Assembly: GCF_030384885.1 (NCBI RefSeq)
Contig: NZ_CP128614.1
Length of the DNA stretch: 64,000 bases
Source: Escherichia coli
Lineage (GTDB): Bacteria > Pseudomonadota > Gammaproteobacteria > Enterobacterales > Enterobacteriaceae
Direction: 5' to 3' (one strand)
Shown: piece by piece, positions 29,833 through 31,147 of the stretch
How the letters are laid out: each line of letters begins with the position of its first letter
Position numbering within the stretch: position 1 is the first letter of the stretch
Position numbers and translations under genes: made by a program
Notes under the pieces: model-generated
What the model was told of the DNA's origin: nothing
What the model saw: only the letters and a program-made list of their open reading frames with translations
The model's database searches: none

Positions 29833-30345
29833 TTAATCTAATTCTTCTTGAGAATACCTCTCTATGGCTGAAGCAGTTGAAGATAATCTGCAACGTGGAC
29901 AATAAGCATCATTTGTCACTGGCACAATGTATGGGCGTTTACATTTTTCGCAGGCACCTAGTTCTTCAATTTCTTTCATAGAAGTAAGGATTTCTATTAT
30001 TTTATTAACTTCCGGTGCGCATACAAAGTATCCCAGATTATGAAGGACACTCATTATTCGGTTGAAGTCAATTTGACGAAAACTCGCTTCCGGATTTATT
30101 GGATCAAAACCAAAATAGTTAACTGCGACATCAATAACAGCAGAAAAAGCTCGGCGGTTATCTGTGCGTTTGCTCCAGCCCCGGATACCTTTTTTGAGTT
30201 TTGTTTTTGCACCAGGCTCAAAATCGATATTTTCAGCAACATGATTACCGTACAAAATTCGTATTGTATTTTTATTTGCCCCAAGCGACATAGTCCTTGC
30301 TGCTCGCAATAGAGCATTAGCTTTTGTTTGATCGACCTTTGCCAT
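29833..30345 (-). CDS. FlhC-like transcriptional activator subunit (TrhY/SetC/AcaC-like)
   Basis: 170-aa ORF with a C-terminal C-x2-C…C-x2-C zinc site (CEKCKRPY…CPRCR) like FlhC; coupled to the upstream gene by a 1-bp gap. Confidence 0.55.
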   Translation of the reverse strand: MAKVDQTKANALLRAARTMSLGANKNTIRILYGNHVAENIDFEPGAKTKLKKGIRGWSKRTDNRRAFSAVIDVAVNYFGFDPINPEASFRQIDFNRIMSVLHNLGYFVCAPEVNKIIEILTSMKEIEELGACEKCKRPYIVPVTNDAYCPRCRLSSTASAIERYSQEELD

Positions 30346-30346
30346 A

Positions 30347-31147
30347 TTAATAATCCTTTAACATAACTTTATTTGTTAAAGTGTTGAACACATCCTGACG
30401 GTGACTGGTGAACATAGTGTCATAACGTAATAGTTCCATCAAATCATCACTAACTTTTCCTAACCGGATGTCAGCAGACAATTCATAAGCCCAGGCAAAA
30501 ACTTTCGTTTTAAGTGAAACACTCTCTTCAATATGCCCTTGTGAGAAAGCAATTGTACGTGGGAAAAGAACGACATCGTTAATTGTTTTTAACGATGAAT
30601 AACCAATGTCTTTAATAGCATCAGCTGTAGTTGGTTTTAAACCAAAGAAAACACTTACAAACTCTGGTGCGAGCATTGAGATAAAGAACACCTGCATAAA
30701 GTAGTCATTCTGTATATCAACACATTTAGAACGCAACTCATGAATCTTCTTGGGATTATAGATATCCACTGTACCATTCAGAAAAGTCACTTTTTCACCG
30801 GCATCGTAAATACCATAGTCAATATCATTTGTATCATATTCACGAATTACATTGGAATCACCGTCCAAGACCGCAGAAAAAAACCTCTCCCATGTAATTT
30901 CCTTTCCGAGTGTACGCGGAACCAAAAAACTACCTGGACGTGTTTCCACTTCAAAAGCTAAATCAGCGGCTGTACTAAATCCTTTCCCAAATAGGCGACG
31001 CTGGAGAAGAGGAGTCCCAGTTTGATATGCAGAAGATCCATGCACAGGCAATAACATTAAAAATGCACGGTAACTACGAATAAGCGAAATCTCAGTGCGG
31101 AAAAGTTTACCGAGTAAGCTACGAGTTAAATTATCAGATTCTGACAT
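30347..31147 (-). CDS. Putative partner subunit of the FlhC-like activator (TrhR-like)
   Basis: 266-aa ORF, first gene of the minus-strand operon leaving the oriT-like region. Confidence 0.4.
   Translation of the reverse strand: MSESDNLTRSLLGKLFRTEISLIRSYRAFLMLLPVHGSSAYQTGTPLLQRRLFGKGFSTAADLAFEVETRPGSFLVPRTLGKEITWERFFSAVLDGDSNVIREYDTNDIDYGIYDAGEKVTFLNGTVDIYNPKKIHELRSKCVDIQNDYFMQVFFISMLAPEFVSVFFGLKPTTADAIKDIGYSSLKTINDVVLFPRTIAFSQGHIEESVSLKTKVFAWAYELSADIRLGKVSDDLMELLRYDTMFTSHRQDVFNTLTNKVMLKDY

Follow-up and report, generated by a model that had tools for sequence, protein, structure and literature searches.

TrhR and TrhY of an IncHI2 plasmid: a probable, highly divergent FlhDC-type pair activating the transfer genes

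The trhR-trhY locus and its counterpart in R27

The DNA analyzed in this study is a stretch of 64,000 nucleotides from an Escherichia coli contig (NZ_CP128614.1), hereafter the window, and is judged from its sequence to be an IncHI2 (R478-type) plasmid. Two adjacent genes are found on its minus strand: namely, trhR (30347–31147; 266 aa, ATG start), which is assigned as the D-type (FlhD-like) subunit on the basis of its open reading frame and 77% identity to the R27 protein, and trhY (29833–30345; 170 aa, ATG start), assigned as the C-type (FlhC-like) subunit. The first-pass annotation had located both reading frames exactly, while their strand is corrected here to the minus strand. Only one base separates the stop codon of trhR from the start codon of trhY (TAA-T-ATG), which suggests that translation of the two genes is coupled. 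Furthermore, the length of 266 aa in TrhR is real, because conservation among orthologues begins at residue 1, an AAGGAC ribosome-binding site stands 5' of the ATG, and the orthologues, including distant ones, span 240–272 aa.

On the same strand and 3' of trhY, a spacer of 593 bp (29240–29832, minus strand), which is AT-rich and presumed to hold the promoter of the F operon, is followed by trhF (28193–29239; a TraF-like thioredoxin protein, Pfam TraF 2.6e-51), trhH (26788–28203; Pfam TraH 4.8e-57), and a gene for a 1317-aa TraG_N protein; trhF and trhH, both on the minus strand, are taken from the RefSeq annotation. On the divergent side, a spacer of 704 bp (31148–31851), in which promoters of the R and H operons are predicted and a repeat array is present, is followed by mobI, a 245-aa ORF, the MobH relaxase, and the TraD coupling protein. 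The pair is hence located between the divergent mobI/relaxase genes and trhF-trhH-trhG, as is characteristic of trhR and trhY.

A 2.2-kb region including the pair has counterparts at 100% identity in many plasmids of the IncHI2A, MOBH, MPF_F type from E. coli, Salmonella, and Enterobacter; with this region as the query, at least 80% of its length was covered in 958 plasmid records. When compared with R27, TrhR and TrhY align without gaps to proteins of equal length, at 77% identity over 266 aa and 85% identity over 170 aa, respectively. The R27 pair (locus L016, 13908–15223) has the same gene order and the same neighbors, with mobI divergent upstream and trhF-trhH-trhG downstream; indeed, the order of mobI pointing one way and R, Y, traF, traH, and traG the other is kept in R27, in a Klebsiella IncHI1B plasmid, and in three more distant contigs. 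Names are consistent with this arrangement: the larger protein is annotated as trhR in one IncHI1 record, and R0123 and R0126 of R27 correspond to trhR and trhF (PMC7366339). By sequence and synteny, the two proteins are the IncHI2 orthologues of TrhR and TrhY in R27, from which the present locus differs in its backbone (IncHI2 versus IncHI1) and in intergenic DNA that can be aligned only in part. Both genes are nonetheless labeled as "hypothetical protein" by RefSeq/PGAP, even in R27, and neither family has a Pfam or NCBIfam model; a family model for each of TrhR and TrhY would fix the annotation in the approximately 2,400–2,500 plasmid records that carry homologues.

A more distant TrhR/TrhY-like pair was also noticed in the Klebsiella IncFIB/IncHI1B plasmid (L003, 7673–10373), with 28% and 35% identity to TrhR and TrhY, respectively. 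The two genes are separated there by 192 bp rather than 1 nt; an extra 180-aa ORF with no Pfam match lies between the pair and traF, and a 70-aa ORF lies ahead of the pair. In both comparisons, the D subunit has diverged faster than the C subunit (77% versus 85% in R27 and 28% versus 35% in Klebsiella), and the D subunits of AcaCD and SgaCD are likewise the faster-diverging ones (PMC8373056).

In R27, TrhR and TrhY are jointly required for activating the F, H, AC, and Z transfer operons (PMC7366339, citing Gibert et al. 2013, 2014 [Mol Microbiol 94:1146], 2016), and HtdA counteracts TrhR/TrhY at the protein level (PMC7366339). Transcription of trhRY is silenced by H-NS at 37 °C, and conjugation of IncHI plasmids is hence dependent on temperature (PMC7366339). 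Given the orthology and these reports, therefore, the function of the pair is already known, having been established in R27, and the same function would be expected of the IncHI2 copy. The first-pass annotation had read the 170-aa protein as consistent with activators of the SetC/AcaC/TrhY type and, provisionally, the pair as the master activator; the former is supported by the identity to R27 TrhR and TrhY with the same synteny, and the latter agrees with the joint requirement of the R27 orthologues for the four tra operons.

Resemblance of TrhY and TrhR to FlhC and FlhD

A four-cysteine zinc site of the FlhC type had been proposed for the 170-aa protein, and this was confirmed in the alignments. 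In TrhY, a predicted zinc ribbon with the pattern C-x2-C-x13-C-x2-C (C132, C135, C149, and C152; 29890–29952, minus strand) is invariant or nearly so across 15 homologues with identities as low as 30%. At the equivalent C-terminal position, the motif of E. coli FlhC is C-x2-C-x16-C-x2-C (C137/C140/C157/C160), and the sites in TrhY, FlhC, and AcaC share the local pattern C-x2-C-x3-[FY]-[IF]. The cysteines of TrhY align with those of FlhC and AcaC, the spacer being 13 residues in TrhY versus 15–16 in the FlhC/AcaC-type proteins. When the TrhY family was aligned by hhalign with an alignment of FlhC/AcaC/SetC-type proteins, furthermore, the match was collinear from residue 3 to the C-terminus (145–161 columns, P of 3–4e-4, probability 35%; P of 3.9e-4 for the alignment of 161 columns); the score was reached by none of 200 column shuffles but by 6 of 200 shuffles of 12-column blocks. 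The N-terminal part of TrhY without the zinc ribbon also aligns from residue 1, with an empirical p of about 0.013–0.02.

Pfam FlhC had no match at E ≤ 1 to TrhY of the window, of IncHI1, or of Klebsiella, whereas AcaC scored 31.8 bits in the same test. A word-indexed search for homologues of TrhY gave proteins of the IncHI type only, indicating a narrow family, and tblastn with E. coli FlhC against plasmids did not reach even AcaC and is hence uninformative for TrhY. Taken with the model described below, the evidence makes a distant homology between TrhY and FlhC quite likely.

As for TrhR, hhalign of its family against an alignment of 129 FlhD/AcaD sequences placed residues 137–206 on residues 5–74 of E. 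coli FlhD (P of 7.9e-4, probability 25%). The score of 26.2 was reached by none of 400 shuffled profiles, and the reversed TrhR profile scored 11.5. BLASTP placed TrhR 112–208 on AcaD 96–174, which overlaps the Pfam FlhD domain of AcaD. Pfam FlhD itself had no match at E ≤ 1 to TrhR of the window, of IncHI1, or of Klebsiella, whereas AcaD, tested alongside, scored 27.4 bits. When 1.84 billion representative proteins were searched exhaustively in HMMER with the profile of TrhR, 41 matches (about five full-length clusters) were obtained, all of which belong to one narrow IncHI-type family with neither FlhD nor AcaD among them. A distant homology between the core of TrhR and FlhD is judged fairly likely. 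It should be noted that the profiles of TrhR and TrhY are shallow (Neff of about 2.7), and that the hhalign probabilities are just 25–36%.

The two proteins were also modeled with AlphaFold2 without templates, as a single chain in which TrhR is joined to TrhY by a 30-residue linker and with 6 paired and 10 unpaired sequences. This fused model has a mean pLDDT of 68.6 and a pTM of 0.65; the means of 10-residue blocks are 70–91 in TrhR 11–200 except for a dip to 47 at 101–110, and pLDDT is about 55–82 in the TrhY part. A separate model of TrhR 105–250 has a pLDDT of 53.7 overall, rising to 65–76 across the long helix and, for the most part, across the three short ones. In each of two independent fold searches, the expected partner family was ranked first among 48,164 chains, with a sequence identity of approximately 10–13% in the structural alignments to FlhD and FlhC. 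FlhC was absent from the matches of the TrhR 105–250 model alone, and the N-terminal half of TrhR is shorter than 123 residues; therefore, the FlhC match of the fused model must involve TrhY. According to these models, which are of moderate (68.6) and low (53.7) confidence and come from a method that may lean towards folds in its training set, TrhY would adopt the FlhC fold and TrhR the helical fold of FlhD.

Other searches gave no such match. With Foldseek, the fused model had no match in the PDB below E = 2.8; phmmer and hmmsearch of both proteins against PDB sequences returned noise (TOM40, TRIM, and cyanovirin) with no FlhC or FlhD; and neither Pfam nor NCBIfam connected the two proteins, or two pairs of their orthologues, with FlhC or FlhD at E ≤ 1. 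Across the family-model and PDB-sequence searches, the cutoffs were E ≤ 1–10. While each single line is inconclusive, the two fold searches, the collinear profile alignments, and the synteny agree with each other, and TrhR and TrhY are hence best read as very distant relatives of FlhD and FlhC. In our literature search, TrhR or TrhY was nowhere mentioned together with FlhC or FlhD, and the structural classification with FlhDC, SetCD, and AcaCD is a modest addition to the known function.

This classification can be compared with the FlhDC-like master activators of MOBH/MPF_F elements: namely, AcaCD (IncA/IncC), SetCD (SXT/R391 ICEs and Rts1/IncT), and SgaCD (SGI1). Like trhRY, these are pairs of a D gene followed by a C gene with coupled translation, carry a C-terminal Cys4 zinc ribbon in the C subunit, and adjoin mobI or traF in backbones of the MOBH/MPF_F type, and they need both subunits for activating several tra operons; coupled stop and start codons are also found in flhDC and acaDC. 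The differences are that AcaC and AcaD pass the Pfam thresholds for FlhC and FlhD while TrhY and TrhR have no match at all, and that the antagonist is HtdA for TrhRY but SetR or the Acr1/Acr2 repressors for SetCD and AcaCD. In FlhD4C2 (PDB 2AVU and 8J56), FlhD is a single domain, and the targets are flagellar as opposed to the transfer promoters of TrhRY; the DNA motifs of FlhDC and TrhRY are expected to be unrelated, as has been reported for AcaCD and FlhDC (PMC4207636).

FlhD/FlhC-like pairs in other MOBH/MPF_F elements occupy the slot of trhRY in IncHI plasmids. In Thiodictyon pTs417 (L013, 1164–2953), an SLT transglycosylase gene and then FlhD-like and FlhC-like genes lie directly upstream of traF. 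In E. coli pECTOK-001_1 (L009, 1906–6330), a MOBH/MPF_F plasmid with an untyped replicon, genes for an SLT transglycosylase, an FlhD-like protein, and an FlhC-like protein lie beside a divergent mobI.

The long first subunit

The first-pass annotation had pointed out that the upstream partner is about twice as long as FlhD and might carry an extra domain, and the extra sequence can now be placed: approximately 130 aa at the N-terminus and a C-terminal tail surround one FlhD-like core. This core (about residues 132–206; 30530–30754, minus strand) is predicted to consist of one long and three short helices and a strand, and it is the single FlhD-like core detectable in TrhR. The N-terminal extension (residues 1–131; 30755–31147, minus strand) is confidently predicted as helices and strands, with a pLDDT of 73–91 over residues 11–100 in the fused model. 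D subunits are in general longer and more divergent than FlhD: FlhD has 116 aa versus 202 in AcaD, 174 in the Rts1-type SetD and in the D subunit of pECTOK-001_1, and 266 in TrhR, the longest.

One explanation for the twofold length is that the FlhD fold is duplicated in tandem within TrhR, making it a single-chain pseudo-dimer like AcaD, with its N-terminal half as a degenerate repeat. FlhD works as a dimer (2AVU), AcaD of pRA1 has a clear tandem FlhD repeat, and in both halves of TrhR a long helix is followed in turn by short helices, a strand ending in hydrophobic-Pro-Arg (FLVPR at 74–78 and VLFPR at 193–197), and a Trp-containing helix. In hhalign, nonetheless, the N-terminal half of TrhR had no profile similarity to its own C-terminal half (P of 0.37–0.47), to the FlhD family (P of 0.39), or to the N-repeat of AcaD (P of 0.12), and it had no match in Pfam or NCBIfam. 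An internal duplication of TrhR is left unsupported by the comparison of the two halves, and we consider this explanation improbable; a single FlhD-type core with a lineage-specific extension remains our preferred reading of TrhR.

With regard to AcaD itself (IncA plasmid pRA1; L005, 46679–47287), residues 24–89 in the N-terminal half align to the FlhD-family profile at a probability of 96% (E of 4.4e-9), so that a recognizable FlhD repeat is present in this half, which is not the case in TrhR. By its sequence, AcaD contains the FlhD domain twice in tandem, and given this match it may be a single-chain FlhD dimer; a loose keyword search of the literature for the duplication in AcaD returned nothing relevant.

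Another explanation, which we hold to be similarly improbable, is that TrhR is a membrane protein unrelated to FlhD that senses or relays a signal to a cytoplasmic zinc-ribbon protein, TrhY, and that the resemblance to FlhD and FlhC is an artefact of the shallow alignments and the bias of AlphaFold. Indeed, TrhR is described as a membrane protein and TrhY as cytoplasmic in a secondary source summarizing Gibert et al. (PMC9598596), and no family HMM ties TrhR or TrhY to FlhD or FlhC, with Foldseek being negative as well. Residues 150–168 of TrhR (30644–30700), FMQVFFISMLAPEFVSVFF, are furthermore hydrophobic, with a 19-residue Kyte-Doolittle mean of 1.74, and would pass for a transmembrane helix in simple predictors. 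This hydrophobicity is, however, not conserved: the aligned segments in distant orthologues have means of 0.53 and -0.08, with three charged residues each. The segment also contains an invariant proline and maps onto helices 1–2 of the FlhD-like core. The classification of TrhR with FlhD questions its label as a membrane protein.

Operon organization and proposed mechanism

In the first-pass annotation, the pair was placed at the head of the transfer operon. This placement was not upheld: in R27, trhR and trhY make up an R operon apart from the F operon (trhF-H-G), and the F operon is repressed by HtdA and activated by TrhRY, whereas the R operon is without regulation by HtdA (PMC7366339). The 593 bp of AT-rich DNA between trhY and trhF would be in line with the same division here. 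By analogy with R27, we hence take trhR-trhY to be its own unit and not the head of the trhF-H-G operon. That the pair is instead the first part of one long operon, trhR-trhY-trhF-trhH-trhG, is very unlikely, since, while all five genes have equal orientation on one strand and a search of the minus strand between trhY and trhF revealed nothing resembling an intrinsic terminator, the R and F operons of R27 are separate with their own promoters and different regulation (PMC7366339), and the gap (29% GC) has a conserved promoter-proximal element just upstream of trhF.

The spacer between trhY and trhF has a GC content of 29–34% and contains no ORF longer than 30 aa save one overlapping trhY. The element in question is a run of seven to eight T followed by TATGCCATCATA (29266–29277, minus strand), approximately 30 nt upstream of the start of trhF. 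IncHI2, IncHI1, and two distant contigs (L007 and L008) share it exactly, although the remainder of the spacer can hardly be aligned; at the equivalent place upstream of trhF, T9 and TATGGGATGATA are found in the Klebsiella IncHI1B plasmid. As a candidate, the T-run with TATGCCATCATA may serve the F operon as a core-promoter or activator-proximal element. In the same spacer, a perfect 14-bp palindrome, TTGACTTAAGTCAA, is found at 29774–29787, about 50 nt 3' of the stop codon of trhY. AT-rich and lacking a T-tail, this palindrome is not conserved in IncHI1.

In the region between trhR and mobI, sigma-70-like sites are found on the minus strand at 31351–31324 and 31678–31651. A 14-mer, AAAGTGACCCTATG, is present in seven copies (0–3 mismatches) at 31475–31619, in strictly alternating orientation and about 21–23 bp apart, and five exact copies of its 11-mer core are found in the equivalent spacer of an IncHI1 plasmid (L002, 5533–5673). 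Because the array is absent upstream of trhF, it is probably an oriT/relaxosome or operator array rather than a general TrhRY box. A box shared by the promoters was also considered, but TATGCCATCATA occurs only once in the window and AAAGTGACCCTATG is confined there to the trhR-mobI spacer, so that no common motif was established.

Taken together, trhR and trhY of the IncHI2 plasmid are likely to encode the two subunits of the activator of the plasmid's transfer genes, with TrhY as a divergent FlhC-type protein and TrhR as a protein with an FlhD core, and to form a two-gene unit of their own. This unit would be transcribed from the divergent trhR-mobI intergenic region. TrhY would be a very divergent FlhC-type subunit, composed of a helical N-terminal part and the C-terminal Cys4 zinc ribbon, and is likely the DNA-binding subunit; TrhR would have a single FlhD-type helical core (about residues 132–206) between the lineage-specific N-terminal extension of about 130 aa and the C-terminal tail. 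On the model of FlhD4C2, SetCD, and AcaCD, TrhR and TrhY may form a heteromeric complex, which would contact the DNA immediately upstream of weak -35 elements and recruit RNA polymerase (class-II-type activation), and HtdA might resemble the anti-FlhDC factors, which work by sequestering a subunit. The classification hence predicts the zinc-site cysteines, a heteromeric complex, promoter binding of the class-II type, and HtdA as an anti-FlhDC-like factor.

A broader reading, which we put forward only tentatively and regard as rather doubtful, is that TrhR and TrhY represent the most divergent branch of FlhDC/SetCD/AcaCD and that one ancestral activator module serves all MOBH/MPF_F elements including IncHI; TrhR would then be a non-membrane protein in which an FlhD core is fused to an N-terminal domain specific to the lineage, and this domain may be a second, degenerate FlhD repeat that makes TrhR a single-chain dimer like AcaD. 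If so, the N-terminal domain of TrhR could be the place where the anti-activator HtdA docks and hence the entry point of control by temperature and growth phase. IncHI2 plasmids, whose transfer is gated by temperature through the TrhR/TrhY pair, rank among the major carriers of mcr-1, ESBL, and heavy-metal resistance genes.
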